Under the pieces are notes generated by a model. It did not search any database. It saw only the letters and a list, made by a program, of their open reading frames with translations, and was not told where the DNA came from. A stretch of DNA of 64,000 nt from the IMG/VR virus record IMGVR_UViG_3300020577_006835, positions 68,588 to 132,587 of that record; one strand, given 5' to 3'. This document shows positions 14,446 through 63,188 of this stretch, piece after piece. Position 1 is the stretch's first letter. The number at the start of each line of letters is the position of its first letter. Position numbers and translations under genes: made by a program. The DNA comes from a virus (taxonomy: Duplodnaviria; Heunggongvirae; Uroviricota; Caudoviricetes).

Positions 14446-14472
14446 TTAGCACGCGACCAACGAATTTGTCAA
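14446..14472 (-). promoter_or_regulatory. promoter-like motif TTGACA-N14-GTGCTAA (minus strand)
   Basis: Reverse complement reads TTGACAaattcgttggtcgcGTGCTAAgattc just upstream of the 14436 start. Confidence 0.5.
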
Positions 14473-14666
14473 GCGAGTGAGATCTCGATCTTCACTTCGA
14501 CAGGGTCATCGGTGTGCTTCAGCTCAGCGTAGTCCGGGCTGTCAGCCGGCAGCTCGATGGCACCGCGGGCGGACACGAAGACACCATGGCGGCGGACGGG
14601 TATTCCGGCATGCAGGTAGAGCCCGTTGAACAGTCTGTCCCGGGCAACGTACATCGTGATCGTCAT
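14469..14666 (-). CDS. small hypothetical protein
   Basis: ORF track. Confidence 0.35.
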   Translation of the reverse strand: MTITMYVARDRLFNGLYLHAGIPVRRHGVFVSARGAIELPADSPDYAELKHTDDPVEVKIEISLA

Positions 14667-15079
14667 TCAGGGTGTTCCGCCGCAGTGGGCCGGCGGAACT
14701 GCTCTAGCATTGCGGCCGCTTTCCCCCAGGCGTTGCGAGCACCCTCACGGAAGTCGTAGTGGGCCTCCGCGTACGGGCACTTCACGACGCCGTAGACGGC
14801 ATCCAGGGTGCGCTCGACGAGGTCTACGACGTCCTCCCTCGCCAGCTTCTCGCTGACGGCCTGCTCTAGGCGCTTGACCTTGTTCTGTGCGCGAACCAGC
14901 TTGCGAGCGAGGCTGCCGCGGTGCGCGTCGTTGGACCAGATGACATCTCGAAGATGAAAGCAGTGCTCGATGAGCTGCTCCTTGGTCATCTTGCGGATCG
15001 GGTCGTCTGGGCTGCGGGGTGCCAGAGGCTTCGGGTGCCACCTGGACTCCGCTGGTTCAGCTCCGAGCTTCGTCATCAT
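14663..15079 (-). CDS. hypothetical protein
   Basis: ORF 14663..15130 with start moved to ATG at 15077-15079 (MMTKLGAEPAE), clear of tRNA-Leu. Confidence 0.5.
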   Translation of the reverse strand: MMTKLGAEPAESRWHPKPLAPRSPDDPIRKMTKEQLIEHCFHLRDVIWSNDAHRGSLARKLVRAQNKVKRLEQAVSEKLAREDVVDLVERTLDAVYGVVKCPYAEAHYDFREGARNAWGKAAAMLEQFRRPTAAEHPE

Positions 15080-15103
15080 GCATCCCTCCGTCAAGCTAAG
15101 CAG

Positions 15104-15189
15104 TACTGGAGGGGGGACTTGAACCCCCACGGGTTGTTAGCCCACAGCGCTCTCGACGCTGCGCGTGCTGCCAGTTTCGCCACTCCAGT
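15104..15189 (-). tRNA. tRNA-Leu (anticodon GAG), class II with long variable arm
   Basis: 86 nt; T-arm GGGGGTTCAAGTCCCCC and D-arm closely resemble E. coli tRNA-Leu; anticodon stem CAGCG/CGCTG, loop TCGAGAG. Confidence 0.7.
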
Positions 15190-15264
15190 AAACAAGGCCG
15201 ATGGTAAGGGCTCGGCCAACACCCACTTGGTGAAGAACCTCGGATAACGGCCCGAGTGCCGAAG

Positions 15265-15335
15265 AGAGGGCAGCGGGAGTCGAACCCGCCTGACAGGTTT
15301 TGCAGACCTGCGCCTTACCGCTCGGCCATGACCTC
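15265..15335 (-). tRNA. tRNA-Cys (anticodon GCA)
   Basis: 71 nt; anticodon loop CTGCAAA; T-loop TTCGACT as in E. coli tRNA-Cys; 3-bp D-stem. Confidence 0.8.
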
Positions 15336-15343
15336 TTCAAGAG

Positions 15344-15417
15344 TACCAGGGGTGGGATTCGAACCCACACTGTCACGGTTCTGAACCGTGTGCCTCCTGC
15401 CGTTGGGCTACCCTGGC
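15344..15417 (-). tRNA. tRNA with anticodon CAG (Leu-type anticodon) but class-I (short variable arm) architecture; A73
   Basis: 74 nt; acceptor GCCAGGG/CCCTGGT, perfect anticodon stem CACGG/CCGTG, loop TTCAGAA, T-arm GTGGGTTCGAATCCCAC. Confidence 0.6.
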
Positions 15418-15942
15418 AGCTTTTCTACGTCTACGGTACTGGCGATTAGCCTCTGCACCACACGTCAACGAGGTGAACCCCTTGTTGTTGCCGTAGGTTG
15501 GAGTTTGTGAGTGGCAGTTCGGGCAGAGAAATTCTAGGTTGTCCAACCTGCAGTCCTTGAAATCCCCGTTTTTGTGCTCTACGTGCAGCCGTAGAGCGTT
15601 GCCAAGCCAGTGCCCGGGGTTGCCACAGCTGGCGCACTCGTACCTGGTGCCGGCTTCGATCAGGGCTCTCCGCAGTCTCAGGGCGTTTTCTCGATAAGGC
15701 TTGCTCCGAAGAACGAGAACCTCCTCGTGTGGCTTCTTGCTAGCCGAGGGCAGGCCGGCGTTCCACACAGTTCTACTGAAGTGCGTGGTGTCCAGGTTGT
15801 ACTGCTTGATCCTCAGCGAGATCAGGTTCGCTCCGCCGCCAGTCAGACGCATGTTGAGTGCCCGCATCACGTCTCTGATGCAGCTGCTGCTCGCTACTAT
15901 CGGGGCTAGTACCCCCTTGGTGTACTTCAGGTGTGCTGGCAT
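15373..15942 (-). CDS. HNH homing-endonuclease-like protein
   Basis: HVEHKNGDFKDCRLDNLEFLCPNCH motif; ORF 3' end overlaps tRNA 15344..15417 by about 45 nt, and its start abuts tRNA 15950. Confidence 0.7.
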   Translation of the reverse strand: MPAHLKYTKGVLAPIVASSSCIRDVMRALNMRLTGGGANLISLRIKQYNLDTTHFSRTVWNAGLPSASKKPHEEVLVLRSKPYRENALRLRRALIEAGTRYECASCGNPGHWLGNALRLHVEHKNGDFKDCRLDNLEFLCPNCHSQTPTYGNNKGFTSLTCGAEANRQYRRRRKAARVAQRQEAHGSEP

Positions 15943-15949
15943 GTGATAG

Positions 15950-16102: not shown

Positions 16103-16228
16103 GTATAGCTTACACAGAAGAAGGGCGTTGGTGCCGGGCTTCTTCTGTTTGGGCTTCAGCTTCTGCTGGATCGCGCTCATAGCCGTCTGTCTTAGCCTAC
16201 CTCTTGGCCCTGTGTCAAGGGCTCTTTC

Positions 16229-16528: not shown

Positions 16529-17127
16529 GCTTGAGCCCTCTCGCGCGCCCGCTTCTCGCGCATGTGGGTGCGCATCGCCTCACGTTTCGCTTCGCCGCGC
16601 CGAGCGTGTGTCGCCGCGTACGTGCACACCGGCCCGCAGAACTTCTGCCGCCTGTACCTCACGAACACCGCCTCACAGTGTGGGCACTTCCGATACGGGA
16701 ACGGCTGTTCCCGAAGGAGCCTCACAAACTCCGCGACAAGCATCTGCTCGACGGTTCGTGTCTCCCAGATCTCTACGAGCATCTCCCGGGAGGTGTGGAG
16801 GTAGGTTAGGACTGACGCACCAGGCACCGGCAGTCTCACCCCCTCCCACTGCAGGAGGCAGCCCAGGTGGAAGTTCACTTTCGGTAGAAGGGTTCTGAGC
16901 AGATTGGCGGGGTTTACAGCTGGCTCCGCGACAAGAACAACGGAGACCGGCGCAGAATCACGCAGGTTGTGCACCTTGAACTTGGCCGCCTCTTCGACCT
17001 GCTCCTTCAGGCGCGCGTGGGCGGACTCTGACAGCATGTCTACGTCATCGTACTCGGCTGACGCCAGCGCTGCGAACAGCGCTTTCACAGCCCCATGGTT
17101 CTTGAATGCCAACCTGTTGCCGCTCAC
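16525..17127 (-). CDS. hypothetical protein with C-terminal zinc ribbon (CPHCE...CGPVC)
   Basis: ORF track. Confidence 0.5.
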   Translation of the reverse strand: MSGNRLAFKNHGAVKALFAALASAEYDDVDMLSESAHARLKEQVEEAAKFKVHNLRDSAPVSVVLVAEPAVNPANLLRTLLPKVNFHLGCLLQWEGVRLPVPGASVLTYLHTSREMLVEIWETRTVEQMLVAEFVRLLREQPFPYRKCPHCEAVFVRYRRQKFCGPVCTYAATHARRGEAKREAMRTHMREKRARERAQA

Positions 17128-18566
17128 TTGGCGTACCTCGACTTGAAGTTGTTGATGTAGAGCAGAGCGCCCAGCTCGGCGACCTGGTCGGCGAAGTCCC
17201 TGGACAGGTGGTCGCTCACGTCCTGGTGGGCGAACTCGTGCAGGAGGAGCTTGAGCACCTCGACCACGTTGTCCTCACGAAACCAGTGGTGGCTGAGCCG
17301 ACCCACGTTGAAGGTGAGCGGGCTGCCAGGGCCGTAGGTGGCGGCGTAGGGCCAGGTGATGTCGCTCGTGAACTGCACCACGAGGTTCTTGAACCCCAGC
17401 GTGTCCTTGCAGATGATCTGCGAGAAGAGGGCGACCCACTTCATGCCCTCGGTCCACTTCTCGCGCGGGATGAGCTTCTGCTCGTCGCCGGTCTCGGAGT
17501 AGGGCTTCGGGCTCGGCGTCACCTGGCCGGCAGGCAGGGTTGCTGCGAACCGCTTCGTGTTGGCGTGCTCCTCGCGTGACTGTGAGCCTCCGTAGATCAG
17601 CTTGTAGCCCTCGCTGACGGCGATGTTGTTCGCCTCCGGGTCTGAGGGGTCGAACATGACCCGCTTCTCACCCCAGCGGAGGTCCTGCACCCTCTTGAAG
17701 GCCTCCTCCTCGACACGCTCGTCACCGGCAGCTTCACGCACCCAGGCCGAGGTCGCATCCTCAACAGAGAGACGGTGGTGAGACGCGTTCAGCGCGTGCG
17801 TGCGCAGAGCCCGCAGATAGCTCGGCGGCACGTTGTCGCGCTCGATGGTCAGCGGGACGCGCTGCAGCACGTTGTAGTGCCACTTGTCGCCTGACTCGAC
17901 GATCGGGATGCCCATCTCGTAGATCAGGGCTGTCTCGCCAGAAGCGGGCTCGTACAGCTCGACGACGGTCTTGCGCTGCGTGCGCCGCAGCTCCCCATCC
18001 TCGCCGCTGAACTCGGTCTGCAGCGTGGCATCGAGCGAGGTGACGGCGGCCCGCCGCGGGATCTCGATGCCGTTCAGCGTGACCGTGACACCGGCGGGTG
18101 GGATGATAGTGCGGAACGCGTCCATCATCTCTGTCATCTCCGCCTTGGTCGCGCGGAGCCTCGCGGTGAACGTGGTGCCTCGAATCGTGCCCGCGGTGCG
18201 ACTCAGGTGTCGACCGTGGTCGTCGAAGATGAGGGCGCCGGTCGTGCTCGCGATCTTCGCATGGTCGCAGAGCGCAAGTACAAACTTCTCGCCGATGTTG
18301 AAGCGACCGCGCAGGGTGGCGTCGGGCTTCTTCTGACTGGGCGCGAACAGCGTGTACGCGTCACGCAGGTCCTGGAAGCCTACCTCCGAATTGTCCCGGA
18401 CCTCCATCTCGACCCGGCCGCGGAACACGGACTCGGTGAGGGCAACCGAGACCCGATCGGACCCGGCATCGACCGCGTTCTGATACAGCTCGAAGAACAC
18501 GAAAGCCTTGCCCCTGCGTGCGACTTGCTGCGCCAGACCTTTCCGATCCACCTCGAACCATTCCAT
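17124..18566 (-). CDS. GHKL/Bergerat-fold ATPase-like protein with C-terminal HExxH (zincin-like) motif
   Basis: N-terminal ELYQNAVDAG (N-box ExxxNAxDA), DNSEVGF (G1), GRFNIGEKF (G2); C-terminal LLLHEFAHQ. ORF 17124..18599 starts at TTG inside its own promoter, so the start is placed at ATG 18564-18566, which has a GGAGG RBS. Confidence 0.55.
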   Translation of the reverse strand: MEWFEVDRKGLAQQVARRGKAFVFFELYQNAVDAGSDRVSVALTESVFRGRVEMEVRDNSEVGFQDLRDAYTLFAPSQKKPDATLRGRFNIGEKFVLALCDHAKIASTTGALIFDDHGRHLSRTAGTIRGTTFTARLRATKAEMTEMMDAFRTIIPPAGVTVTLNGIEIPRRAAVTSLDATLQTEFSGEDGELRRTQRKTVVELYEPASGETALIYEMGIPIVESGDKWHYNVLQRVPLTIERDNVPPSYLRALRTHALNASHHRLSVEDATSAWVREAAGDERVEEEAFKRVQDLRWGEKRVMFDPSDPEANNIAVSEGYKLIYGGSQSREEHANTKRFAATLPAGQVTPSPKPYSETGDEQKLIPREKWTEGMKWVALFSQIICKDTLGFKNLVVQFTSDITWPYAATYGPGSPLTFNVGRLSHHWFREDNVVEVLKLLLHEFAHQDVSDHLSRDFADQVAELGALLYINNFKSRYAK

Positions 18567-18587
18567 GCGTCGTACCTCCAGTCTCAG

Positions 18588-18616
18588 ATTAGACCACAAC
18601 CATCAATCTTTGTCAA
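18588..18616 (-). promoter_or_regulatory. sigma70-like promoter TTGACA-N17-TCTAAT (minus strand) for gene 17124..18566
   Basis: Reverse complement reads TTGACAaagattgatggttgtggTCTAATctgagactGGAGGtacgacgcATG. Confidence 0.5.
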
Positions 18617-18664
18617 CCGGGTTGACTTTCCCAACCCGATGTGAGAGAACCGTAGCTCGGAGGA

Positions 18665-20281: not shown

Positions 20282-20419
20282 GGGGGAGCAGGGGGAGGGC
20301 GCCGCAGAGGCTCGACCCTCCCCCCGCATGGGTGGGGTGAGCCAAACCCTACTCATGTCCGTCAGAGTTGTCAATACGAGGTCGCTGGTGCTAACCGGCC
20401 AGCGGACAGGAGGACGAGG

Positions 20420-21273: not shown

Positions 21274-21561
21274 GTGAAGCTCTTGTTCTGCAAGGCGTGC
21301 GTGGACGTGAGGAAGCTCTCCACGCGCACGATCACGGTCTGTGACTGCGGTGCGTCCAAGGGCAAGTACCTGGAGGATGGGCTGAACGCTACGGTCGAAG
21401 GGGACCGCGCCCTCGTGCTGGGGTTCGACAACAACTCTCTTCGAGCTGCCATCATGCAGGACGGCAGACTGCCGAAGGAGTACGGGGCCGAAGGGGAGCC
21501 CGGCGTCAGGTTCGAAGCCTTCATCATCCCCAACTCAGCAAGGTCCGTGAAACGGGCTTGA
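21274..21561 (+). CDS. hypothetical protein
   Basis: ORF track (GTG start). Confidence 0.45.
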   Translation: MKLLFCKACVDVRKLSTRTITVCDCGASKGKYLEDGLNATVEGDRALVLGFDNNSLRAAIMQDGRLPKEYGAEGEPGVRFEAFIIPNSARSVKRA

Positions 21562-21584
21562 CACACTCAGCGGTCGAGTGCTAA
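21558..21584 (+). promoter_or_regulatory. promoter-like motif TTGACA-N14-GTGCTAA
   Basis: cTTGACAcactcagcggtcgaGTGCTAAagg, 35 nt upstream of the 21619 start with RBS GAAAGGAG. Confidence 0.5.
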
Positions 21585-23919: not shown

Positions 23920-24260
23920 GAGTCATCGAAGGCGTTGGACCTGATGCCCAGGTTGTCGCGAACGAGAGGGGTGCCAAGGCCAGCAAGCCCGCGGCCCGCA
24001 TGGACCTGCTGCCGCACCGGGCGCTGCTGGAGATCGGCAAGCTCGGCCTGTTCGGGGCAGACAAGTATGGGGTCGACAACTGGCGCGGCTTCGACGTGAA
24101 CGACCACCTGAACCACGCCGACGTCCACCTGCACGCCCACCTGGCCGGCGACCGGCAGGAGGGTCCGATCGGGCACCTGTCGAGGCTCGCACTCAGGGCG
24201 CTGTTCGCCCTGGAGACGGCCATCGACGATGAACGCAAGAAGCAAGAAACAGCAAGTTGA
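23916..24260 (+). CDS. hypothetical protein
   Basis: ORF track (TTG start overlapping previous stop). Confidence 0.45.
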   Translation: MRVIEGVGPDAQVVANERGAKASKPAARMDLLPHRALLEIGKLGLFGADKYGVDNWRGFDVNDHLNHADVHLHAHLAGDRQEGPIGHLSRLALRALFALETAIDDERKKQETAS

Positions 24261-24282
24261 CAAAGCACCGGACAGCGTGCTA
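24256..24282 (+). promoter_or_regulatory. promoter-like motif TTGACA-N14-GTGCTAA
   Basis: gTTGACAaagcaccggacagcGTGCTAAcaaaGGAGGctcctATG. Confidence 0.5.
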
Positions 24283-24297
24283 ACAAAGGAGGCTCCT

Positions 24298-24438: not shown

Positions 24439-24510
24439 GCCACGCTCGTCTATCGGCTAGGACACCTGATTCTCGATCAGGGAAGCGGAGTTCGACTCTC
24501 CGGCGTGGTA
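24439..24510 (+). tRNA. tRNA-Glu (anticodon CTC)
   Basis: 72 nt; anticodon stem CCTGA/TCAGG, loop TTCTCGA; T-arm CGGAGTTCGACTCTCCG. Confidence 0.75.
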
Positions 24511-24520
24511 CTCGTGCCGG

Positions 24521-24594
24521 GGGTCAGGGGTGCATGCTGGAGCGCACATCGGTCTCCAAAACCGAAGGACTCGGTTCGACTCCGAGCTGACCTG
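24521..24594 (+). tRNA. tRNA-Trp (anticodon CCA)
   Basis: 74 nt; anticodon stem TCGGT/ACCGA, loop CTCCAAA; T-arm CTCGGTTCGACTCCGAG. Confidence 0.75.
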
Positions 24595-24657: not shown

Positions 24658-25107
24658 GTGAAGACTAAGGTTTGCACTAAGTGCGGTGCCAGGAAGCAGC
24701 TCGACCAATTTCACGTCAAGGATAAGCAGAGGGGGACGAGGCGAGCACGCTGTAAGCCTTGCTGGTCGATCTACAGGCGGCAGCACTACCTGGAGAACCA
24801 GAGCAAGTACATCAAGATGTCACGGGCTCGTGTTGTAGAGCATCGCCGCCGTCTTCGATTTCTGATTCTTGAGGCCAAGGCGAAGCCGTGTGCAGACTGC
24901 GACCTCTCATACCCGCCATGGGTGATGCAGTTTGATCATGTGCGGGGCAGGAAGCTCTTTCACCTGGGCGCCTACCGTGAAGACTACGTCTCGGTGCCCA
25001 CACTCCTGAACGAGATCAAGAAGTGCGACGTGGTGTGCGCGAACTGCCACGCTGATCGAACGTACAAGCGAAACCCGTACGACATCCCAGACAGCCCGTT
25101 CGTCTAG
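24658..25107 (+). CDS. HNH endonuclease (small free-standing family shared with 36387..36833 and 37826..38191)
   Basis: GTG start; PCADCDLSYPPWVMQFDHV...KCDVVCANCH; 3' end overlaps tRNA-Glu(TTC) by about 15 nt. Confidence 0.7.
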   Translation: MKTKVCTKCGARKQLDQFHVKDKQRGTRRARCKPCWSIYRRQHYLENQSKYIKMSRARVVEHRRRLRFLILEAKAKPCADCDLSYPPWVMQFDHVRGRKLFHLGAYREDYVSVPTLLNEIKKCDVVCANCHADRTYKRNPYDIPDSPFV

Positions 25108-25165
25108 AGGCCGAGGACGCCGGACTTTCAATCCGGGGACGCGGGTTCGAATCCCGTACGGGCTA
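25093..25165 (+). tRNA. tRNA-Glu (anticodon TTC)
   Basis: 73 nt; anticodon stem CCGGA/TCCGG, loop CTTTCAA; T-arm GCGGGTTCGAATCCCGT. Confidence 0.8.
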
Positions 25166-25192
25166 TTGACAAGGTCACCTCTCATGTGCTAA
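25166..25192 (+). promoter_or_regulatory. promoter-like motif TTGACA-N14-GTGCTAA
   Basis: TTGACAaggtcacctctcatGTGCTAAaacc, immediately after tRNA-Glu. Confidence 0.45.
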
Positions 25193-27132: not shown

Positions 27133-27594
27133 GTGTCGGTATACGTGAGACGAAGCAAGCTACCTCTGAAGGAGGTGTTGTCTAAGGGCCAGCTGCTGAT
27201 CAGCGCAGACAAGATCGAGGTCATGGTCGACGATCCGGACGGTGTGATCCGAGACTTCGGCCTGGAGCTGGAAGGGCTCGTGATCTCCGACAAGGGTTCG
27301 TGGCACGTGTTGTACGCCAGCGGCGGCAGCATGCTCCAGGAGCTGGAGTTGAAGGTCAAGACGCTGCGCAGGATCGAGGATGGTCTGGGAGCGCTCGAAG
27401 ACAGGTACGGGGTGCCAGGGAGCTTCGGCCAGTACGCGGTGAGGGTTGCCGACGTGCTGGGCATCAAGAGCTTCAGGGCACAGGGGTTGGCTCACCTGAC
27501 CCCGCGTGAGGCGGTGCACGTGATTGATCACCGTCCTGCCACGCTGCACAGGGTGGGGGAGTCTGAACGCCCCCGGGGAGCGGCGACGGCATGA
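27133..27594 (+). CDS. hypothetical protein
   Basis: ORF track. Confidence 0.5.
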   Translation: MSVYVRRSKLPLKEVLSKGQLLISADKIEVMVDDPDGVIRDFGLELEGLVISDKGSWHVLYASGGSMLQELELKVKTLRRIEDGLGALEDRYGVPGSFGQYAVRVADVLGIKSFRAQGLAHLTPREAVHVIDHRPATLHRVGESERPRGAATA

Positions 27595-28277
27595 AGGCAG
27601 GAAAGGGGGCTGGCAAGAAAGGTAACGAGTTGACGATCAAGAAGAAGAGAACGCGAGAAGAAGTACTCGCGAGCTTTACCAAGAAGTACAAGGTCGAGGC
27701 CAAGACCGGCTGCTGGGTCTGGCAAGGGGCCGTAGCCAACAGATCCCGAGGGACAGGTATCCGCGGCAACATGCTGGGTGAGACCGGCATCGAGGCTGCG
27801 CACCGAGTCTCGTGGAAGCTATTCAGGCCGGACGAGCCGATCGAGGGCCTCTACGTCGGGCAATCGTGCCACAACGCTCTCTGCGTGAATCCGAAACACT
27901 TGTTCAGCCAGAAGGGTCGACCTGTTCTGGCCGGCGAACATCACCCTCTGTCCAGGCTGAACGACTACACGGTGATGGAGCTGAGGCACCTGCGAGAGCG
28001 CAACCGAAACCGGAACACGCTGCAGAGGCTCGCCGACAGGTACAACGTGTCCAGGGAGGCGGTCCGCAGGATCGTGCACGGCATGTCATTGGGCGGGATG
28101 AAGATCCCCCAGGACATCGTCGAGCAGATCAAGAAGGACTACCAGCCCAAGATCGACATCGTCGAGTTCGTTGGCCTGCCTGAGAACGAGATCGCACGCA
28201 GCACGCTCGAAGGGGCAGCCTCCGGTCGCACCTGGCGACACGTAGGCGAGCCGCCAGTGGACATCGGGTCTCTGTGA
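27591..28277 (+). CDS. HNH endonuclease (HNH_3-type) with C-terminal HTH-like region
   Basis: GCWVWQG...AHRVSWKLF...GLYVGQSCHNALCVNPKHL. Confidence 0.7.
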   Translation: MKAGKGAGKKGNELTIKKKRTREEVLASFTKKYKVEAKTGCWVWQGAVANRSRGTGIRGNMLGETGIEAAHRVSWKLFRPDEPIEGLYVGQSCHNALCVNPKHLFSQKGRPVLAGEHHPLSRLNDYTVMELRHLRERNRNRNTLQRLADRYNVSREAVRRIVHGMSLGGMKIPQDIVEQIKKDYQPKIDIVEFVGLPENEIARSTLEGAASGRTWRHVGEPPVDIGSL

Positions 28278-34146: not shown

Positions 34147-34173
34147 TTGACAAGCCTGTCATGCGTGTGCTAA
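34147..34173 (+). promoter_or_regulatory. promoter-like motif TTGACA-N14-GTGCTAA
   Basis: gTTGACAagcctgtcatgcgtGTGCTAAaccacccgcATG, coordinates +/-1. Confidence 0.5.
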
Positions 34174-34182: not shown

Positions 34183-34410
34183 ATGGCAGACAACCCAAAC
34201 CAAGCACGAGGAGTCGTCAGAGTGTCGGCCCTCGTGCTTGGCCTACTCGCGATCGTCGCGATGTACCAAGGCCTGCACGCCTTCATGAGCGTGGACAACT
34301 ATGAGGGCGGCCGCTGGTACGCAGTCATGGCCCTCGGCTGGGCCATCTACCTGCTGGGCCTCCGAGCGCTGGCGACCGTGCTCGGCTTCATCATGTACGG
34401 GGAACGCTGA
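34183..34410 (+). CDS. small two-TM membrane protein
   Basis: ORF track; hydrophobic segments VSALVLGLLAIVAMY and YAVMALGWAIYLLGLRALATVLGFIMY. Confidence 0.45.
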   Translation: MADNPNQARGVVRVSALVLGLLAIVAMYQGLHAFMSVDNYEGGRWYAVMALGWAIYLLGLRALATVLGFIMYGER

Positions 34411-36078: not shown

Positions 36079-36386
36079 GCAGTGACGGCTGCTGCACGTG
36101 TAAGCTGACGTGCGACAGCATGGGTCGGTGCAGGAATCACGGCCACTGGTCGTCGGTGACGGCGACAGAAGCGAGTGGGTACGGAGGCGACAACGGCGCC
36201 AGAGTTCCGTCGAAAGGTTCCATGCCAGCCGGGGTGTCCGGGTTCGATCCCTGGGGATACCGCACCAAGTCGGAGGAAGAGCCGACCAGCCGTTCACGAC
36301 CGTGAAACCCATACCGGTTGACAAGAAACGCGGATCTGGGCATAGTCGGTGATCAACGCGAGAGTGGCGAAATTGGCAGCACGCGC

Positions 36387-36833: not shown

Positions 36834-36876
36834 TTCAAAACCAGTGGCACTGTGGGTTCGAGTCCCACCCCCAGTA
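36801..36876 (+). tRNA. tRNA-like gene, anticodon CAA? (irregular D-arm; low confidence)
   Basis: 7-bp acceptor GCTGGGG/CCCCAGT and T-arm GTGGGTTCGAGTCCCAC are good; anticodon stem ACTGA/CCAGT with loop TTCAAAA; D-arm is poor. Confidence 0.35.
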
Positions 36877-36877
36877 T

Positions 36878-41634: not shown

Positions 41635-41869
41635 GCTGGACCAGCTCGTCGTCCTGCTGAACAGCGCCGGGTATGAGAGGTACAACCCGCTCAACCTGGA
41701 CGGCGGGGGCAAGATCGGCGAGATGCAGGTGCTCCTGGCTCAGGCCAGGAAGGAGATCGCGACCGCCTTCAGGTTTCCCAAGTCCTACCTGAACACCGCA
41801 GAGCCCAAGAGCTTGAACGGCAGAGTGTACCCGAAAGAGTTGTGGGAGAAGGTGTTGACAAAAGCATGA
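41627..41869 (+). CDS. small hypothetical protein
   Basis: ORF 41441..41869, start moved to ATG 41627 (MSELDQLVV), overlapping the PRTase stop. Confidence 0.4.
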   Translation: MSELDQLVVLLNSAGYERYNPLNLDGGGKIGEMQVLLAQARKEIATAFRFPKSYLNTAEPKSLNGRVYPKELWEKVLTKA

Positions 41870-41881
41870 GTCGTGTGCTAA
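41855..41881 (+). promoter_or_regulatory. promoter-like motif TTGACA-N14-GTGCTAAtct
   Basis: gTTGACAaaagcatgagtcgtGTGCTAATCTcttctcATG. Confidence 0.5.
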
Positions 41882-42778: not shown

Positions 42779-43569
42779 TCGCAGGGTGCGGGGAGCCCAC
42801 CCGTAGTCGTGGGCTGTGCCAGCTGCACTACAACCGCTGGATCAAGTACGGCAAGACTGGGGTCGGGCCAAGCACTAGGTTACACCAGCGCGCCCGCGGC
42901 AGGGTGTGCTCTGTACCGCAGTGCGACCGCCCGGTGAGGTGCAAAGGGCTCTGCAGCGTCCACTACGGCCACGGGATTCGGAGTAGCACCTGTGCACGCT
43001 GCGGTGGCAGGAAGACCGCAGCTGCTGCCCTCTGCGCGGGTTGCTTCGAGAAGACCTTCGAGCCGCCTGCCGCTGAGAAGCGGTGCACAGGGTGTAATGC
43101 AGTGCAGCCTGTCGAGGCGTTCGGCTGGCGCAGTGATGGTTCCGGCAGGTCCAAGCTGAGATCCAAGTGCCGCACCTGTGAGCGAGCCCGCGCGCGTACC
43201 TACATGGCTGCTCTGCGGCTCGACCCAGACAGGTGGCGCAGGGTGAAGGCGCGAGAGAAAGCTGCCAGGGACCTAGTGGCTCAACGAGACCCCGAGCGGT
43301 GGCTTTTCCGCTCGTTACGGGTCTCAGCTAAAGCACTCGGCATTGACCCTGAGCTGGTGTTTGAGCGTTTGCAACGCACAGGTCACCGGTGTGAGGTTTG
43401 CGGGTTGCAGGGTGCCCCATCACCAGGTCGTCGCCTCCACATCGACCACTGTCATACGACAGGTAGGTTTCGCGGACTGCTGTGCTCCCCGTGTAACCGG
43501 GCGCTGGGTCTAGTCGAAGACGACACAGACCGAGTCTTGAAGCTTGCCAAATATCTCAAGGGTGCTTGA
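42730..43569 (+). CDS. recombination endonuclease VII-family (HNH-like) protein with N-terminal CxxC zinc-ribbon repeats
   Basis: C-terminal RLHIDHCHTTGRFRGLLCSPCNRALG matches the Endo VII motif; N-terminal repeated C..GC...R..GLC..HY units. Confidence 0.6.
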   Translation: MGAAVGCQRVGGGKCVVAGCGEPTRSRGLCQLHYNRWIKYGKTGVGPSTRLHQRARGRVCSVPQCDRPVRCKGLCSVHYGHGIRSSTCARCGGRKTAAAALCAGCFEKTFEPPAAEKRCTGCNAVQPVEAFGWRSDGSGRSKLRSKCRTCERARARTYMAALRLDPDRWRRVKAREKAARDLVAQRDPERWLFRSLRVSAKALGIDPELVFERLQRTGHRCEVCGLQGAPSPGRRLHIDHCHTTGRFRGLLCSPCNRALGLVEDDTDRVLKLAKYLKGA

Positions 43570-43592
43570 CAAGAGCCTCACTCGCGTGCTAA
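43566..43592 (+). promoter_or_regulatory. promoter-like motif TTGACA-N14-GTGCTAA
   Basis: cTTGACAagagcctcactcgcGTGCTAAaggt. Confidence 0.5.
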
Positions 43593-45671: not shown

Positions 45672-45844
45672 AATCTCTTGCACGGCTGCTCGGTGCCGTG
45701 CTAATGCTTGACCTTCTCAGGCAGCGTTTCACCGGGCCAGGGCCTGGTATCCGAAAGGGTACCAGGCCTGAGGCTCTGAGGATCAACGACATGACCAGCT
45801 TTGAAAGGAGGATAGCCATGAAGCGAATGTAAAGGAGGCTATTC

Positions 45845-46636
45845 ATGTCCACGAAGAATCTGGCGCGGACCATCATCGAAGGTGGCCGCACGACTCGCTC
45901 GAAGGACGCGCGCAGGCAGTGCACGCGGTTCGCCCGTCAGCAGGCTCGGATGTACATCACCAGAGGCCTGAAGGACCCGGACCACTTCGACGACTTCAAC
46001 GAGTTCGACTACCGCGAGTGGGATGTCCACGAGCAGCGCGACAAGCTGCCGCCGGTCTACCGCTGGCTCGACAAGCACTCCGGGCAGCCCTGGGACCTGG
46101 TTTGGTCCAAGCTCAAGGGCAAGTTCGACAACCGCAACGTCGCTCAGCGGCACGTGATCTACGACCACATGCTGCACGAGGTGACCGGCAACGGCGTGAC
46201 CCGGGAGGTCATGTACCGCTACTGGTACCGCCGCGAGGGGTTCAACCCGGAGGAGATGCACGTCGACAAGGACGGCATCCTGCGCGGGCACACCCGCTAC
46301 GGGCGCTACTACTACAACCGGCGGAAGGCGATCAAGCCGCGGTACACCGGGCAGCAGGTCTCGGCCTGGGCCGGCGACAACAAGGTCATCGTCCGCGGAC
46401 CCGGCGTCTACTTCTGGGTCGAGCCCGTAGAGTCCAGCCTGAGCGCTGTGGCCGCAGCCGAGTACCGGCGTCGCACCGGCTTCGAGCCGCCCAGCTACGC
46501 CTACCGGCAGACCACCAAGCTGACCAAGAAGGATGCCGAGATCTTCGAGCACCTGATGCAGCTGCCGGACTACCTGAACTACAAGAAGATGCTGCTCTAC
46601 CCGACTCCGCACAAGCGCGTAGTGTACGCAGGGTGA
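45845..46636 (+). CDS. hypothetical protein
   Basis: ORF track; strong RBS AAAGGAGG; preceded by a mini-ORF and hairpin. Confidence 0.55.
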   Translation: MSTKNLARTIIEGGRTTRSKDARRQCTRFARQQARMYITRGLKDPDHFDDFNEFDYREWDVHEQRDKLPPVYRWLDKHSGQPWDLVWSKLKGKFDNRNVAQRHVIYDHMLHEVTGNGVTREVMYRYWYRREGFNPEEMHVDKDGILRGHTRYGRYYYNRRKAIKPRYTGQQVSAWAGDNKVIVRGPGVYFWVEPVESSLSAVAAAEYRRRTGFEPPSYAYRQTTKLTKKDAEIFEHLMQLPDYLNYKKMLLYPTPHKRVVYAG

Positions 46637-49335: not shown

Positions 49336-49942
49336 CCCGACGAAGTACATCTTCGATGGCGTTCGATTCCCGTCCGTGACCGAGGTGCTCTCGCTGTCCG
49401 GCTGGTCCGACTACAGCGACGTCAACTCCGAGGTGCTTGACCGAGCAGCTGTCCGCGGCAGTGAGGTGCACGACCTGAGCGAGCAGTTCGACCTGCAGAT
49501 GCTCGACCCGGACACCCTGCCCCTGCACCGCAGAGGGTACATGAACGGGTACCGGCGGTTCCACCAGGACTACGACTGCCGGCCGCTGCTCAGAGAGCGG
49601 GTGGTCAAGAGCTTCAAGTACCGTGTCGCAGGCCAGATGGACATCTACGCCTTCCTCAACGGCAAGCTGGCTGTGATTGACGTGAAGACGGCGCGCGAGG
49701 AGTCGAGGTCCTGGGGCCTGCAGCTGGCCGGCTACGCGATCTGCTTGATGGAGGAGGACTTCCACAAGATGCTGCTCAAGCAGAACGGGCAGATCAAGCC
49801 GGAGAGGTACGGGCTCAGGCTGGGGCACGAGGGTACCTACGAGCTGGACCGCTGGCCCAACGACAAGGACTACACCCTGTTCCTGGCCGCCACCACGACC
49901 GTAAACGCGCAGATCGACGCCGGATTGGTCACTGTCGGTTGA
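49325..49942 (+). CDS. possible PD-(D/E)xK-fold nuclease-like protein
   Basis: GQMDIYAF...LAVIDVKTAR resembles a D...(D/E)xK motif. Confidence 0.35.
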   Translation: MARDPTKYIFDGVRFPSVTEVLSLSGWSDYSDVNSEVLDRAAVRGSEVHDLSEQFDLQMLDPDTLPLHRRGYMNGYRRFHQDYDCRPLLRERVVKSFKYRVAGQMDIYAFLNGKLAVIDVKTAREESRSWGLQLAGYAICLMEEDFHKMLLKQNGQIKPERYGLRLGHEGTYELDRWPNDKDYTLFLAATTTVNAQIDAGLVTVG

Positions 49943-49966
49943 CAAACACACCGGGAGTCGTGTTAA
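49939..49966 (+). promoter_or_regulatory. promoter-like motif TTGACA-N15-GTGTTAA upstream of tRNA cluster
   Basis: gTTGACAaacacaccgggagtcGTGTTAAgg, about 40 nt before tRNA-Gln. Confidence 0.45.
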
Positions 49967-50006: not shown

Positions 50007-50081
50007 TGGCCAGTAGCTTAGCCCGGTTAAAGCAGCGGTCTCTGAAATCGCGATGCGCAGGTTCGAATCCTGCCTGGCCTA
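50007..50081 (+). tRNA. tRNA-Gln (anticodon CTG)
   Basis: 75 nt; anticodon stem GCGGT/ATCGC, loop CTCTGAA; T-arm GCAGGTTCGAATCCTGC. Confidence 0.7.
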
Positions 50082-50097
50082 CTCCTTCTCAACTTGC

Positions 50098-50169
50098 AGG
50101 CCAGTAGCTCAACGGCTAGAGCGACGGACTTTGACTCCGTGGGTGTGGGTTCGATTCCTACCTGGCCTG
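50098..50169 (+). tRNA. tRNA-Gln (anticodon TTG)
   Basis: 72 nt; anticodon stem ACGGA/TCCGT, loop CTTTGAC; T-arm GTGGGTTCGATTCCTAC. Confidence 0.75.
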
Positions 50170-50177
50170 CGCCTCAA

Positions 50178-50250
50178 GCCCACGTGGCCGAAAGGATCAG
50201 GCACGCCCCTCCTAAGGGCGTCGATGCAGGTTCGAGTCCTGCCGTGGGTA
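50178..50250 (+). tRNA. tRNA-Arg (anticodon CCT)
   Basis: 73 nt; anticodon stem CGCCC/GGGCG, loop CTCCTAA; T-arm GCAGGTTCGAGTCCTGC. Confidence 0.7.
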
Positions 50251-51377: not shown

Positions 51378-51404
51378 AGACCAACCTTCGGGTTGGTTTT
51401 TTTC
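51378..51404 (+). terminator. rho-independent terminator (hairpin ACCAACC-TTCG-GGTTGGT followed by T7)
   Basis: agagACCAACCttcgGGTTGGTttttttct immediately after the 51338 stop. Confidence 0.65.
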
Positions 51405-51415: not shown

Positions 51416-51442
51416 TTGACAGATCCACAGGTCGTGTGCTAA
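51416..51442 (+). promoter_or_regulatory. promoter-like motif TTGACA-N14-GTGCTAAtct
   Basis: gTTGACAgatccacaggtcgtGTGCTAATCTtcttcacATG. Confidence 0.5.
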
Positions 51443-52415: not shown

Positions 52416-52550
52416 GTGGGTGTAGTTTAGAGGTCTAGAACGGCCCGAACGGGAGCTGCTGATGGCCACAGCTAACAGCCCTGGGACTGATCACCCTGGG
52501 TCAACTGGGCTCCCCGGTGGACGACGCAGGTTCGAATCCTGCCACCCGCA
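52416..52550 (+). ncRNA. 135-nt tRNA-like element: canonical acceptor, D-arm and T-arm, with a 55-60 nt insertion in the anticodon region and a long variable region
   Basis: GTGGGTG TA GTTT AGAGGTCTA GAAC ... GCAGGTTCGAATCCTGC CACCCGC A; followed by ACCA; internal direct repeat CCCTGGG x2. Confidence 0.35.
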
Positions 52551-53672: not shown

Positions 53673-54396
53673 TGAGGTGAGAGTGGTCGAGTTGTACCGG
53701 CAAGGGAGAAGCCTACCGCAAGTGGCGGTGGAGATGCACTGCTCTCCGGGTACAGTGAAGAAGTGTTTGACCGGTCTCGGTGTCAAGATCCGCAGAGCCA
53801 GGCCTCTCAGTGAGCAGATCGAGATCGGTAGGCGGTTCGGCAGGCTGACCGTGACCGACTTGATGATGACGGCACGCAGAGATGGGCCAGGGCTCACACT
53901 GACAGCTCTCTGCAGCTGTCAGTGCGGTCGCAGCGGTCTTGAGAAAAGAGCTAGCAACCTGTTGAGCGGCACGACTACATCCTGCGGGTGTAGGCCAAGA
54001 ATCGGCGCTGACGGTCCGCGATGGAAAGGTTGTGGCCAGCTGAGCGGGTACGCCTGGGCTCAGATCACAGCATCTGCCAGAAGCCGTGCTGATAGGCAAA
54101 AGGCTCACTTCGAAGTTACTATCGAGGAGGCGTGGCAGTTGTTTGAAGCCCAAGGTGGTCGGTGTGCTCTGAGCGGGCTGCCGATCTGCTTTGCCGAGAC
54201 AGCTGAGAAGAAGAGGCAAGGGCAGCAGACAGCCTCTCTAGACAGGATTGATTCCAGAGCGGGTTACACAGTCGGTAATCTGCAGTGGGTTCACAAGGAC
54301 ATCAACAAGCTCAAGAGTGACTTCCAAGAGGGGAGATTCGTTGAGCTGTGCAAGCTCGTGGCCGATTACCAAGCAGAGAGGCTGTTGCATGGGTGA
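53653..54396 (+). CDS. HNH homing-endonuclease-like protein with N-terminal HTH
   Basis: GTG start; C-terminal GGRCALSGLPI...ASLDRIDSRAGYTVGNLQWVHKDINKLK; inserted between glf and the GT2 gene. Confidence 0.6.
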   Translation: MKKIQLDEVRVVELYRQGRSLPQVAVEMHCSPGTVKKCLTGLGVKIRRARPLSEQIEIGRRFGRLTVTDLMMTARRDGPGLTLTALCSCQCGRSGLEKRASNLLSGTTTSCGCRPRIGADGPRWKGCGQLSGYAWAQITASARSRADRQKAHFEVTIEEAWQLFEAQGGRCALSGLPICFAETAEKKRQGQQTASLDRIDSRAGYTVGNLQWVHKDINKLKSDFQEGRFVELCKLVADYQAERLLHG

Positions 54397-55231: not shown

Positions 55232-55778
55232 GGTTGAAGCGCTCAGCAAGGCGTCCCAGGTCGCCGGATTCATGTACGAGCATGAGCTGGAGTGGCTCTA
55301 CGACCAGGCCTGTGACCGCGACATCATCATCGAGATTGGTGTCTGGAAAGGGCTCAGCACGACCGTGCTCTGTGAGGCTTGTCCGGGCGTCGTGATCGCT
55401 GTCGACCACTTTTCCGGTGGCTCGGACGAGGGGGATGCGAGCCCGGCCGCGGCCAAGAACCAGAATGTCAGGGCGGTCGCCATCGAGAACCTCAAGCCAT
55501 ACCTGGATTCAGGCAAGCTGATCCTGGTGCAGACCCCGTCCGACAAGGCGTTTGAGACCCTGCGCAAGCTGTTCCCCGGTCGCTTCGCCGACATGGTCTA
55601 CATCGACGGAGACCACCGGACCGAGGCCGTGAAGCTGGACTTGAGGTACAAGGACCTGATCAAGGACGGCGGACTACTCTCAGGGCACGACTGGGATTGG
55701 AGCAGTGTGCGCGAAGCAGTGGCGCCGCTGAAGCCTGTGACCCTGGGTCGCATGTGGTGGACGCTGATCGGCGGTTGA
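55227..55778 (+). CDS. TylF/MycF-like class I SAM-dependent (sugar) O-methyltransferase
   Basis: ORF 55173..55778, start moved to ATG 55227; IIEIGVWKGLST, VDHFSGG, VYIDGDH, LSGHDWDW. Confidence 0.55.
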   Translation, partial: GKVEALSKASQVAGFMYEHELEWLYDQACDRDIIIEIGVWKGLSTTVLCEACPGVVIAVDHFSGGSDEGDASPAAAKNQNVRAVAIENLKPYLDSGKLILVQTPSDKAFETLRKLFPGRFADMVYIDGDHRTEAVKLDLRYKDLIKDGGLLSGHDWDWSSVREAVAPLKPVTLGRMWWTLIGG

Positions 55779-55801
55779 CAAGCCGCCAGGTCGTGTGCTA
55801 A
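55775..55801 (+). promoter_or_regulatory. promoter-like motif TTGACA-N14-GTGCTAA
   Basis: gTTGACAagccgccaggtcgtGTGCTAAaaagatcggATG. Confidence 0.5.
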
Positions 55802-61067: not shown

Positions 61068-61780
61068 GGAAGACGCAGGCACAGCAGTGCGCTGAGACTG
61101 GCTGTGATGTTGTGCTGCCGAAAGCTCGGAGTGTTGAAGCCAGGTGCGCACGGCACGCGCTAATGCTTTGGAAGCGCAGCAACGCCGAGCAGGTCAAGAA
61201 GTACGAAACTGAGTACCGCAAAGCGCACAAAGAGCAGATCAACGCTACCAGGAGATTGAGGCTAGCTGAGCCAGAGGTGCGGGCCATTACCAGGGCTCGC
61301 GATCGTGCCCGCCTTGAGCAGAAGAGGTTGTATGTAGCTGCGAATCGCGAGCGGTACCAGGAGTTGCACCGCAGTTACTATCCGCGCTATCGAGAGCGGT
61401 ACCAGAGGCGGTACCAGGAAAACCGTGAGAAGCTGCTAGCTCAGAATAAGTCCTGGCAAGCAAAAAACAAGGATAGAGTGAAAGCCAAGCGTGAGGAGTG
61501 GAAGGCGGCAAACCCTGGAAAGGTCAGAGCTGAGTGGGCGAGGCGTCGCGCTGCGAAGATGCAGGCGATGCCGCGGTGTTTGACCGCGGAGCAACTGCTT
61601 CAGCTCGAACGAATCTACGAGAGTTGCCCGCCTGGGTACCACGTCGACCACATCGTACCGCTTCGCGGCAAAGACGTCTCCGGGTTACACGTACCGTGGA
61701 ACCTGCAGTACTTGCCGGCAGCAGAGAATCTTCGCAAGAGCAACAAGTACAGTAGTTCGCGCAGCATTGTCGCTGTGTGA
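61064..61780 (+). CDS. HNH endonuclease
   Basis: GTG start; C-terminal [38 protein letters not shown]. Confidence 0.7.
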
Positions 61781-61815
61781 GGAGGCGCCAGTAGTGGGCT
61801 AGCGAGGAGGAACCT

Positions 61816-62070
61816 ATGGGTCGACTGGGAATGTGTCTGCTCATGTTTTGTTTGACGGCAACCAGTGTGGCCGGGGCGATAACCTTCAAGATGAACCACG
61901 AAGGCAACTCTGTTGCATGTAGGGAAGAGAGGAAGTTCTTGATGGACTGGGATGCGGAGCTGCACACAGCGGCACAGCTGGCTGCGTACGAGCCCTTCGC
62001 GGGCCTGACACAGCCGACGACGACACCAACACCGGCGATGACGGCCGGCGGCCGCGACTACCAGGGCTGA
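61816..62070 (+). CDS. small secreted protein (signal peptide)
   Basis: ORF track; RBS AGGAGGAACC. Confidence 0.45.
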   Translation: MGRLGMCLLMFCLTATSVAGAITFKMNHEGNSVACREERKFLMDWDAELHTAAQLAAYEPFAGLTQPTTTPTPAMTAGGRDYQG

Positions 62071-62288
62071 TGGGTAAGCGGTCGTTCAAGGCCTGGCTCA
62101 CCGGCCAGCGCCTGCGCAAGGACAGTGTCGGCACGATCGCGCGCTTCGTGTGCGACGACAGCAGGATCTTGATGGGTGCACCGAACGCACACACGGTGCA
62201 CGTGCGACTCGATCAGTACGGGCTGCTCACCGCGACGAGAGCCAAGGCTCTCCAGAAGGCGGAGGCCGAGTGGCGAGAGACCTGGTAA
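62070..62288 (+). CDS. small hypothetical protein
   Basis: ORF track. Confidence 0.4.
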   Translation: MGKRSFKAWLTGQRLRKDSVGTIARFVCDDSRILMGAPNAHTVHVRLDQYGLLTATRAKALQKAEAEWRETW

Positions 62289-62548
62289 TCGAGCACGGCG
62301 TCGTCGCCTATCAGTGGGACGACGAGAGTCCGACGCCGTGCACGGTGCTCCACTTCGTCGGCTACCCAATCTTCCCGGACGATGCGGAGATGGATCGCCT
62401 GCTGCAGGACCTGGCCACCGACCCGTGCTTCGGTCTGATCGGCATCCCGTTTGCCCTCAAGAGGGCGACCCCTGAGCAGGTCAGGTTCTACATGGAGGAC
62501 ATCCCGGAAGATGTTCTTGTCATCGAAGACGAGGACGATTTCTGTTGA
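62279..62548 (+). CDS. small acidic hypothetical protein
   Basis: Part of ORF 62150..62548, from GTG 62279. Confidence 0.35.
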   Translation, partial: DLVIEHGVVAYQWDDESPTPCTVLHFVGYPIFPDDAEMDRLLQDLATDPCFGLIGIPFALKRATPEQVRFYMEDIPEDVLVIEDEDDFC

Positions 62549-62571
62549 CAGCTACTTGGAGGGGGTGCTAG
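62545..62571 (+). promoter_or_regulatory. promoter-like motif TTGACA-N14-GTGCTAG (copy A of duplicated element)
   Basis: gTTGACAgctACTTGGAGgGGGTGCTAGAGGCGCC. Confidence 0.45.
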
Positions 62572-62598
62572 AGGCGCCTCAAATTTGTGGGGGTGGTG

Positions 62599-63158
62599 TG
62601 GAGCATTACTATCAGAGTGTTCAAGGTTGGTTCGTCGAGGGCGATATAGCTTTCTACAAGACCCTGCTTTCAATGATTCCGGACGGCGGGGTTTTTGTTG
62701 AGGTTGGCTCGTGGAGAGGGAGATCCTTCTCATACATGCTCGTCGAGGCCTTGAACACCAACAGGCAGATCAAGATGGTCTCCGTCGACCACTTCGGCGG
62801 GTCACCAGAGGAGCACATCTTTTTCGGTGCCGACAGCGGTGAGGTAAGGAACTGTTTCCTTAGCAACGCTTCCAGGTCGGGCTACCCGTACGAATTGATC
62901 GAGGCCCCCTCACTGGTAGCCGCCGAGCGGTTCCAGGATGAGTCTGTCGATGCGGTTTTCATCGACGCTGCCCACAACGAGCAGGATGCAACTGCGGACT
63001 TCGCCGCTTGGTTGCCGAAGGTCAAAGTAGGGGGAGTACTCTCCGGGCACGACTCCCATTTCCCTGGCGTTCAAGCGGCGTGGGCGAACAACGGGCTGCA
63101 GCCCATCATCGTTGGTGACACGGAGGCAGGCGGGTCCTGCTGGTATCTCATCAAGTAA
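62599..63158 (+). CDS. TylF/MycF-like SAM-dependent O-methyltransferase (paralog of 55227..55778)
   Basis: VEVGSWRGRSFSY, VSVDHFGGSPEE, VFIDAAH, LSGHDSHF; start set at GTG 62599 within ORF 62451..63158. Confidence 0.5.
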
Positions 63159-63161
63159 GTG

Positions 63162-63188
63162 TTGACAACCACTTGGAGAGGGTGCTAG
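63162..63188 (+). promoter_or_regulatory. promoter-like motif TTGACA-N14-GTGCTAG (copy B of duplicated element)
   Basis: gTTGACAaccACTTGGAGaGGGTGCTAGAGGCGCC. Confidence 0.45.

Follow-up and report, generated by a model that had tools for sequence, protein, structure and literature searches.

A recurrent TTGACA-N14-GTGCTAA motif as the probable promoter of non-structural units in an undescribed large phage

Introduction

The early promoters of the T4-type phages, which are served by the sigma-70 of the host, combine a TTGACA -35 element, a TG at -15/-14, a T at -12, and an A at -11 with a spacer within 17 ± 1 bp, and occur many times over, almost unchanged, before small non-structural genes and tRNA genes, with none in the structural block. 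All these properties recur in the motif TTGACA-N14-GTGCTAA, which is present in about 18 copies in the stretch of DNA analyzed here: a window of 64,000 nt (64 kb) comprising positions 68,588–132,587 of the IMG/VR record IMGVR_UViG_3300020577_006835, from a phage of the class Caudoviricetes. The T4-like cyanophage contigs that we examined have the same habit, in the form of TTGACA-N14-TGGTATTAT, TGCTAAGAT, and similar sequences. The motif departs from the T4-type early promoters, however, in a spacer of 18 instead of 17 bp; in a -10 hexamer of the form TAAnnn, in which the T at -7 is infrequent; in the invariance of G-16, C-13, and A-10; in its GC-rich context; and in several predicted leaderless units, with the ATG at +1, which units are not, to our knowledge, a feature of the T4-type phages of enterobacteria.

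The two later promoter classes of T4 were considered and set aside. In the middle promoters a MotA box, (a/t)(a/t)(a/t)TGCTTtA, centred at -30 replaces the -35 element, and the late promoters, which depend on gp55, have TATAAATA at -10 without any -35. Our alignment has TTGACA at -35 and lacks a TGCTT box at -30, and TATAAATA has no match in the window.

Outside the T4 group, the housekeeping consensus of the Caulobacter crescentus RpoD (sigma-73), TTGaCgS / GCtANAWC (PMC8144410, PMC13004042), shares with the motif the TTGAC of the -35 block and a -10 of the form GC-TA-N-A (G-C-T-A-A-a in the motif), the last T of the hexamer not being required; the motif differs in having A instead of G at position 6 and A instead of S at position 7 of the -35 block, and in the lack of the final W and C, the gap between the two consensus blocks being 15 nt. 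We offer this likeness as a resemblance only. In the Caulobacter phage phiCbK, too, a promoter of the form cgtgaatcTTGACA-N14-TG.., with a weak -10, recurs. Many mRNAs of Caulobacter are leaderless. The promoters of leaderless genes in Actinomycetota and Deinococcus-Thermus (PMC12340547) have a -10 element that adjoins the open reading frame (ORF), as does the motif, whose hexamer ends 6 nt before the ATG; yet those promoters are typically TAnnnT and often without a strong -35, whereas the motif has a perfect -35 and a weak T-7, and the gene content of the phage fits phages of Pseudomonadota and not actinophages. Finally, T4-like phages have in their hyperplastic regions composite terminator/promoter motifs, the PeSL elements, that mediate insertions and deletions (indels) there (PMC4122927). 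The window shares with the PeSL cassettes (PMC2839356, PMC4122927) the repeated early-type promoters bordering small variable ORFs and the replacement of promoter-led genes in the same slot between strains, but differs from them in that the stem-loop/terminator half is found at one copy only, at 51379–51403.

Occurrence and Anatomy of the Motif

Ten exact copies of TTGACA-N14-GTGCTAA were found in the window, against 0.00 expected from 100 dinucleotide-preserving shuffles; with up to two mismatches allowed the matches rose to 15, the expectation being 0.59, and a weight matrix constructed from 13 sites gave 14 matches above 8 bits, where simple shuffles gave 0.62. When gaps of N13–N16 were admitted, three extra intergenic copies appeared, at 49939 (N15, GTGTTAA), 18616 on the minus strand (N15, GGTCTAA), and 45678 (TTGCAC), so that the total, counting the one- and two-mismatch and the N15 variants, comes to about 18. 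The initial annotation of the window had claimed a recurrent motif with 15 or more copies, which claim these counts uphold. Its main coordinates were correct, except that 24256 should read 24257, and the copies at 62545 and 63162 end in GTGCTAG; two weak variants that it had listed, at 27097 (with only TGTACA-N13 as the -35) and at 18622 on the plus strand (with no TA at the -10), are not counted here as copies, and four that it had omitted are added: the exact copy at 11221, a doubtful one at 37536, and the minus-strand variants at 16192–16218 (AGGCTAA) and 18589–18616 (N15, GGTCTAA). The copies are the following:

11221–11247, plus strand: exact copy within the TubZ-like tubulin gene 10746–11918, 683 nt before the tRNA-Met pair 11931–12084, of which it is possibly an internal promoter; also found in the strain variants L117, L149, and L150
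14446–14472, minus strand: exact copy, -10 TAAGAT; the ATG of gene 14101–14436 (minus) lies 9 nt after GTGCTAA, predicted leaderless; the upstream gene, 14469–14666, has its TGA stop within TTGACA
16192–16218, minus strand: variant TTGACA-N14-AGGCTAAGAC, upstream of the tRNA-Lys pair 16102–15949
18589–18616, minus strand: variant TTGACA-N15-GGTCTAATCT, in a divergent intergenic region upstream of the gene for a 480-aa ATPase-like protein, 17124–18566 (minus)
20368–20394, plus strand: copy whose -35 reads TTGTCA, with a Shine-Dalgarno sequence and the ATG at 20420 downstream
21558–21584, plus strand: exact copy, with the upstream TGA stop within TTGACA, followed by a Shine-Dalgarno sequence and the ATG at 21619 of a 303-aa protein
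24257–24283, plus strand: exact copy, followed by a Shine-Dalgarno sequence, a 43-aa ORF (ATG 24298), and tRNA-Glu plus tRNA-Trp at 24439–24594
25166–25192, plus strand: exact copy abutting the 3' end of tRNA-Glu 25093–25165, followed by a Shine-Dalgarno sequence and the ATG at 25249
34147–34173, plus strand: exact copy; the ATG at 34183, the first start of ORF 34183–34410, lies 9 nt after GTGCTAA, predicted leaderless
37536–37562, plus strand: doubtful variant GTGCGAA (8.4 bits) within gene 37230–37655, 189 nt before tRNA-Pro at 37752
41855–41881, plus strand: exact copy, -10 TAATCT; the ATG at 41891 of a DUF6011 protein lies 9 nt after GTGCTAA, predicted leaderless; the end of the upstream gene falls within the spacer
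43566–43592, plus strand: exact copy with the TGA stop of the Endonuclease-VII/HNH ORF 42730–43569 within TTGACA; a Shine-Dalgarno sequence and an ATG at about 43637 come next
45678–45704, plus strand: variant TTGCAC-N14-GTGCTAA, 140 nt before gene 45845–46636
49939–49966, plus strand: variant TTGACA-N15-GTGTTAAGGT, 40 nt before the tRNA-Gln/Gln/Arg cluster 50007–50250, with the upstream TGA within TTGACA
51379–51403, plus strand: intrinsic-terminator-like hairpin and T-run, GACCAACCTTCGGGTTGGTTTTTTT, just upstream of the next copy
51416–51442, plus strand: exact copy, -10 TAATCT; the ATG at 51453 lies 10 nt after GTGCTAA, predicted leaderless
55775–55801, plus strand: exact copy; the ATG at 55811 of the CCA-adding enzyme lies 9 nt after GTGCTAA, predicted leaderless; the TGA stop of the upstream methyltransferase gene is within TTGACA
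62545–62571, plus strand: variant GTGCTAG with the spacer ..CTTGGAGGGG, before the methyltransferase gene 62598–63158, with the upstream TGA within TTGACA
63162–63188, plus strand: variant GTGCTAG, upstream of the gene beginning at 63279; this copy and the preceding one are both present in another strain (L165)

The signal is 27 bases long, and the alignment of the 13 strong copies yields tgTTGACAa-N7-(g)GTCGy-GTGCTAAa. The hexamer TTGACA is exact in 16 of the 18 copies, the exceptions being the TTGTCA at 20368 and the TTGCAC at 45678, in agreement with the earlier statement that the -35 matches the sigma-70 consensus. The gap between the two blocks had been called invariant at 14 nt, which description fits 16 of the copies and does not fit the remaining two, where the gap is N15; if TAAnnn is taken as the -10 hexamer, the spacer measures 18 bp in those 16 copies and 19 bp in the N15 pair. 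In every one of the 13 strong copies GTGC directly precedes TAA, thus placing the TG one base upstream of the -10 hexamer, and T-12 and A-11 are likewise without exception in these 13; G-16, C-13, and A-10 are also invariant in the alignment, and (G)GTCGY recurs, with partial conservation, in the 3' half of the spacer. A mild AT enrichment (0.48, versus 0.37 for the window) marks the 20 nt that precede the -35.

Placement, Orientation, and Distance to the Starts

Genes and tRNAs take up 90% of the window; 16 of the 18 copies fall into the other 10% or extend over the final codons of a gene (binomial p ~ 1e-14). Without exception, the 18 copies point in the direction of the genes around them: those on the minus strand, three in number, are found in the single minus-strand gene block of the window, at 13.7–18.6 kb, and just outside the window, on contig L165, two more exact minus-strand copies precede three minus-strand genes. 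Seven copies contain the stop codon of the upstream gene, which is the TGA of TTGACA itself. An equal occurrence within coding DNA on either strand, which had been named beforehand as the pattern contrary to a promoter, is not what we found, the placement being at gene boundaries and in the direction of the genes.

The distances to the downstream starts are no less regular in part of the copies. At five of them the first ATG of the downstream ORF (at 14436, 34183, 41891, 51453, and 55811) lies 9–10 nt after GTGCTAA, an offset whose background chance is 2% (five of 16 observed, p ~ 1e-5), and the same arrangement is present in the diverged relatives L130, L131, L136, and L142 and at position 19696 of L165, on the minus strand. 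After the other copies come an AGGAG-type ribosome-binding site plus a start codon, or else tRNA genes. Counted from the last base of GTGCTAA, the next start is 9–11 nt away in six copies, five of them with a clean leaderless ATG; 14–90 nt away in most of the Shine-Dalgarno-led copies; and 140 nt away for the copy at 45678, with the two intragenic copies being 189 and 683 nt from the next tRNA. The original description of the copies as lying 20–50 nt upstream of a start codon or tRNA cluster is accordingly retained as regards the boundary placement (16 of 18) and replaced as regards the distances.

No full copy was found in the roughly 16 kb of upstream flank or in the first 11 kb of the window, where only two weak variants occur, in the far-upstream region of small genes. 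This motif-free region contains the PolA, gp32, UvsX, gp46/47-like, Mor-like, and portal genes; that is, the genes of replication, recombination, and the head.

Another promoter-like site, of a more canonical form, TTGACA-N17-CATAGT, is located at 36318–36350, about 480 nt before the five-tRNA cluster 36801–37197, which indicates that not every tRNA cluster uses the GTGCTAA type.

Conservation in Related Phages

When metagenomes were scanned with a stricter pattern, contigs came to light from relatives that are ~77–80% identical to the window. Three alignments of orthologous regions showed the -35 and -10 blocks as the best conserved parts of otherwise variable intergenic DNA, with the spacer and the flanks drifting; for example, the spacers cagggccaagaggt and ctaggtgaggaggt are found between an identical TTGACA and an identical AGGCTAAGA. 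The minus-strand site at 16192 keeps the -35 and AGGCTAAGA in the relative L143 with a different spacer, and nothing in the intergenic alignment with L142 and L136 is better conserved than the copy at 51416; in these relatives the hairpin and T-run at 51379–51403 are also kept. A more distant relative, L123, whose Glf is 48% identical and has the same DUF6011 and GT2 neighbours, carries TTGACA-N12-TGTGGTTAAA, in which the TG has moved by 1 nt and the distance from TTGACA to TAA(A) is still 18, as selection on the sigma contacts would predict.

In the divergent intergenic region 18567–18664 an inverted repeat, GGGTTGACTTTCCCAACCC, overlaps a weak plus-strand TTGACT and abuts the minus-strand TTGACA; this repeat is conserved in the relative L143.

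Promoter Reading and Alternative Explanations

We propose, with a probability of about 0.75, that the motif is the standard promoter of the non-structural, early- or middle-type units of the phage, and that those units would be transcribed by a holoenzyme of the primary sigma-70 type, most likely that of the host. The orientation, the boundary placement, the fixed distance to the ATG, and the retention of the two blocks in diverged relatives all agree with a promoter; from the sequence we infer that RNA polymerase initiates there, which sigma it would use, and to which temporal class the units would belong. If the A of the ATG is taken as +1, the TAA falls at -12 to -10 and the TG at -15/-14, with an 18-bp spacer, which is the geometry of an extended -10 promoter and bears out the position that the initial annotation had assigned to the TG and to the TAAnnn that follows. 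TTGACA would thus be the -35 element, recognized by sigma region 4.2, and separated by the 18-bp spacer from the -10; the TG of GTGC would be the extended -10 contacted by region 3.0; and the TAA would supply T-12, A-11, and A-10 of the hexamer to region 2. Transcription would start about 7 nt after the hexamer, which position in at least five genes of the window would coincide with the A of the ATG and so give rise to leaderless mRNAs, and elsewhere the transcript would bear a Shine-Dalgarno-led gene or a tRNA cluster.

Several observations weigh against this proposal. The T at -7, which is normally among the two most important bases of the -10, is present in only three of the 13 strong copies and, with the variants included, in about five of 18 (TAAGAT, TAATCT, TAAGGT), and a standard sigma-70 consensus scan that requires T-7 recovered none of these motif sites. 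A consensus -35 plus a TG relaxes the requirements on the -10, however, so that the perfect -35 and the TG might offset the frequent lack of T-7, and a scanner that demands that base misses the sites. The invariant G-16, C-13, and A-10, together with the semi-conserved (G)GTCGY, exceed the known contact needs of sigma-70, which extra conservation could reflect another protein or the mere copying of one ancestral promoter. In addition, two copies lie inside genes (11221 and 37536), the start site is placed solely by the fixed distance to the ATG, and the inspection for sigma genes extended over ~85 kb, the genome being of 208 kb or more.

The initial annotation had left the choice between a host primary sigma and a phage-specified factor, and here the primary type is favoured, on account of the perfect -35 and of the lack of a sigma gene in the ~85 kb inspected. 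A phage-encoded factor of the sigma-70 family, or the host polymerase with a phage co-factor, would make of the motif a phage-specific class in which the start of transcription and that of leaderless translation were coupled in one compact module; we consider this unlikely. The invariance of GTGCTAA at positions where primary sigmas usually vary (G-16, C-13, A-10), the lack of conservation at T-7, and the semi-conserved spacer would suit such a factor, huge phages often encode sigma factors, and the search for one took in ~85 kb of the 208 kb or more that the genome measures. The extended pattern with GGTCGY is, moreover, almost absent from 185,579 bacterial species genomes (two matches, no more than chance), a result that disposes of a host chromosomal origin of that extended motif and that marks the spacer conservation as a property of the phage lineage, whether by common descent or by extra constraint, which is why the phage-encoded factor stays as a minority rival. 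That absence, though, concerns the over-specified GGTCGY pattern and not the generic promoter class; the TTGACA, the TG at -15/-14, T-12/A-11, and the 18-bp spacer are targets of primary sigmas and call for no new specificity; neither the window nor its flanks yielded a domain of a sigma, an anti-sigma, or an RNA polymerase; the units driven (tRNAs, small ORFs, and genes of RNA repair and modification) look to be needed before any phage factor exists; and the perfect -35 argues against an appropriation in the style of MotA/AsiA, which replaces that element. Still less probable, in our judgment, is that the blocks also or mainly bind a phage regulator, after the manner of the oriented stoperators of the cluster A mycobacteriophages or of an operator overlapping a promoter, with coordinated repression or a timing switch as the outcome. 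The semi-conserved (G)GTCGY, the second spacer subtype GGAG(G/A)GG-GTGCTAG-AGGCGCC at 62545 and 63162, the strict orientation of the copies at gene boundaries, and the Mor-family activator gene at 674–1042 could be accommodated by a regulator; but the bipartite form with a variable spacer of fixed length and a fixed distance to the ATG is the geometry of a promoter, unlike that of a single operator of 13–20 bp, orthologous copies differ in the spacer and keep the hexamers, and no repressor-like gene was identified. Activators of the Mor type of phage Mu, for their part, act on promoters without a good -35, which also counts against a regulator.

The preferred promoter role could be accompanied by another, in that the repeats might be points of recombination through which promoter-led cassettes are shuffled, as in the T4-type PeSL. 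Such a recombination role is possible, if doubtful. The copies border small ORFs in a variable region, and the slot from the tRNA-Leu cluster to ~13.8 kb holds non-homologous promoter-led genes in different strains: a cassette replacement adjoins a promoter copy beside the tRNA-Leu/Cys/Leu cluster, where window positions 13864–15778 and positions 2737–3754 of L117 contain genes without homology. Against this, the upstream stem-loop/terminator that defines a PeSL is present only at 51416, the single copy of the 18 with significant upstream folding (z = -4.7), so that a strict PeSL reading is rejected; no recombination junction within a motif copy was demonstrated; and the clearest indel between strains, at 20420, proved not to be an exchange of promoter copies, but a free-standing HNH endonuclease gene inserted, in some strains, exactly at the ATG and absent from the window. 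The near-duplicate copies at 62545 and 63162, which flank one methyltransferase gene and would favour a recombinational history, match at 31 of 34 positions, through GGCGCC; the recent local duplication suggested for them at first is plausible but not proven, and a similar spacer type, GGAGGGG-GTGCTAC, at a different locus in a relative implies that the pair may instead be a promoter subfamily. That the motif might be a repeat foreign to transcription altogether, such as a packaging, replication, or homing-endonuclease target, is in our view highly improbable: the genome is indeed rich in homing endonucleases and inteins, but the orientation tracks the genes on both strands, the copies stand at gene starts with a fixed distance to the ATG and upstream of tRNA clusters, the motif matches the sigma-70 -35 and extended -10, and the hexamers are conserved where the spacer varies.

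If the motif is indeed the host-read promoter proposed above, no new mechanism would be involved, recurrent sigma-70-like promoters being expected in large lytic phages. The motif would nevertheless provide a ready-made transcription map for an undescribed and widely distributed jumbo phage, marking ~18 units in the window, separating the variable early-type region from the block of replication and head genes, and predicting which genes have leaderless mRNAs. The leaderless design, which is noteworthy in a phage with a T4-like portal and recombination genes, and the T-7-independent -10 would be clues to the transcription and translation machinery of the host, and the stop codon in the -35 with the start codon at +1 would make a tidy case of genome economy.

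The Putative Host

The homologues of RlaP, of the DUF6011 protein, and of the CCA-adding enzyme occur in phages of Pseudomonas, Caulobacter, Brevundimonas, Rhizobium, and Burkholderia and in a few from cyanobacteria, none of those homologues being from an actinophage, and the named bacterial homologues of the CCA-adding enzyme all belong to Gamma- or Betaproteobacteria. From these affinities our best guess, of low confidence, would be a high-GC member of the Pseudomonadota. An actinobacterial host, which might be suggested by the G+C content, the leaderless genes, and a match of tRNA-Pro to Streptomyces phages, was discarded because of that lack of actinophage homologues. Searches with the GroES and Glf sequences gave no taxonomic signal, a scan of IMG/VR with 14 specified bases gave single random matches only, and a literature search by the motif word gave no match.

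A cyanobacterial host was likewise discarded. A metagenome scan with TTGACA-N8-GGTCGYGTGCTAA hit one locus of T4-like cyanophages, in which the spacer was mismatched beyond the positions enforced by the pattern; the ordinary promoters of those cyanophages have the form TTGACA-N14-TGnTAnnAT, and we judge this hit to be a chance match within a generic promoter class. That locus is a highly conserved one, common to the T4-like cyanophage contigs of 36–47% G+C (L124–L146 group A, e.g., L139 11780–12300; and L153–L164), and consists of phased TTTTTGAGA repeats, then gcTTGACAACTCGTTAGGTCGCGTGCTAAGAC, and then several hundred non-coding bases with ATCTGTGGAAAAC repeats, its GC-rich spacer being unusual for a phage rich in AT. 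The locus may be an origin, or may encode a non-coding RNA.

Gene Content of the Phage

The window, with a G+C content of 62–64%, belongs to an undescribed phage whose genome is of at least 208 kb. No phage close to it at the DNA level was found in INPHARED, and, by look-ups of exact proteins, this phage recurs at 94–99.9% identity in dozens of publicly available metagenome assemblies, one contig being 208 kb long. The genes, called with a codon-usage gene caller built for this window, are tightly packed on the plus strand save for the minus-strand block at 13.7–18.6 kb. Pfam matches comprise a T4-type portal with two inteins, an intein-containing protein of 1127 aa, a TubZ/PhuZ-like tubulin, an SPFH protein, RlaP, the CCA-adding enzyme, a histidine phosphatase, Glf, a GT2 glycosyltransferase, two class-24 methyltransferases, and an Endonuclease VII/HNH gene, and the flanks contribute PolA-UDG, gp32, RNase H, UvsX, GroES, gp46/47-like genes, and a Mor-family protein. 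The genes of the window and its flanks, ~85 kb together, yielded no domain of a sigma, an anti-sigma, or an RNA polymerase.

The gene of the 1127-aa protein (1604–4987) is upstream of that of the portal (5288–9286); the former protein carries a LAGLIDADG intein and has a homologue of 703 aa in the relative L152, and one of the portal inteins has an HNH domain, the L152 portal being of 909 aa. The tubulin gene, 10746–11918, has its nearest match among isolated phages in the Bacillus phage G (24% identity). The Mor-family protein (122 aa; 674–1042), of the family of the middle-operon regulator of phage Mu, is encoded immediately upstream of the head-gene block and may be an activator of the late genes, which are without the motif. 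Free-standing genes of the HNH/Endonuclease-VII type are located at 27591–28277, 37825–38181, 42730–43569, and 53673–54388, and further genes of this type at 8404–8800 of L117 and 1959–2354 of L122.

The tRNA genes of the window number 21, 20 of them predicted by ARAGORN and one by Rfam alone. This last match, at 52416–52550 (135 nt, 38.7 bits), has an insertion of ~60 nt and may be an intron-containing or otherwise unusual tRNA. In the 36079–36386 gap, at about 36230–36290, lies a fragment resembling a T-arm and acceptor and ending in CCA. Some 15 kb upstream of the window, at 363–803 of L168, a 440-nt non-coding stretch rich in GGCGAGGCAGGCG / GGCAAGG repeats immediately follows the PolA-UDG gene and a promoter variant of the GTGTTAA type.

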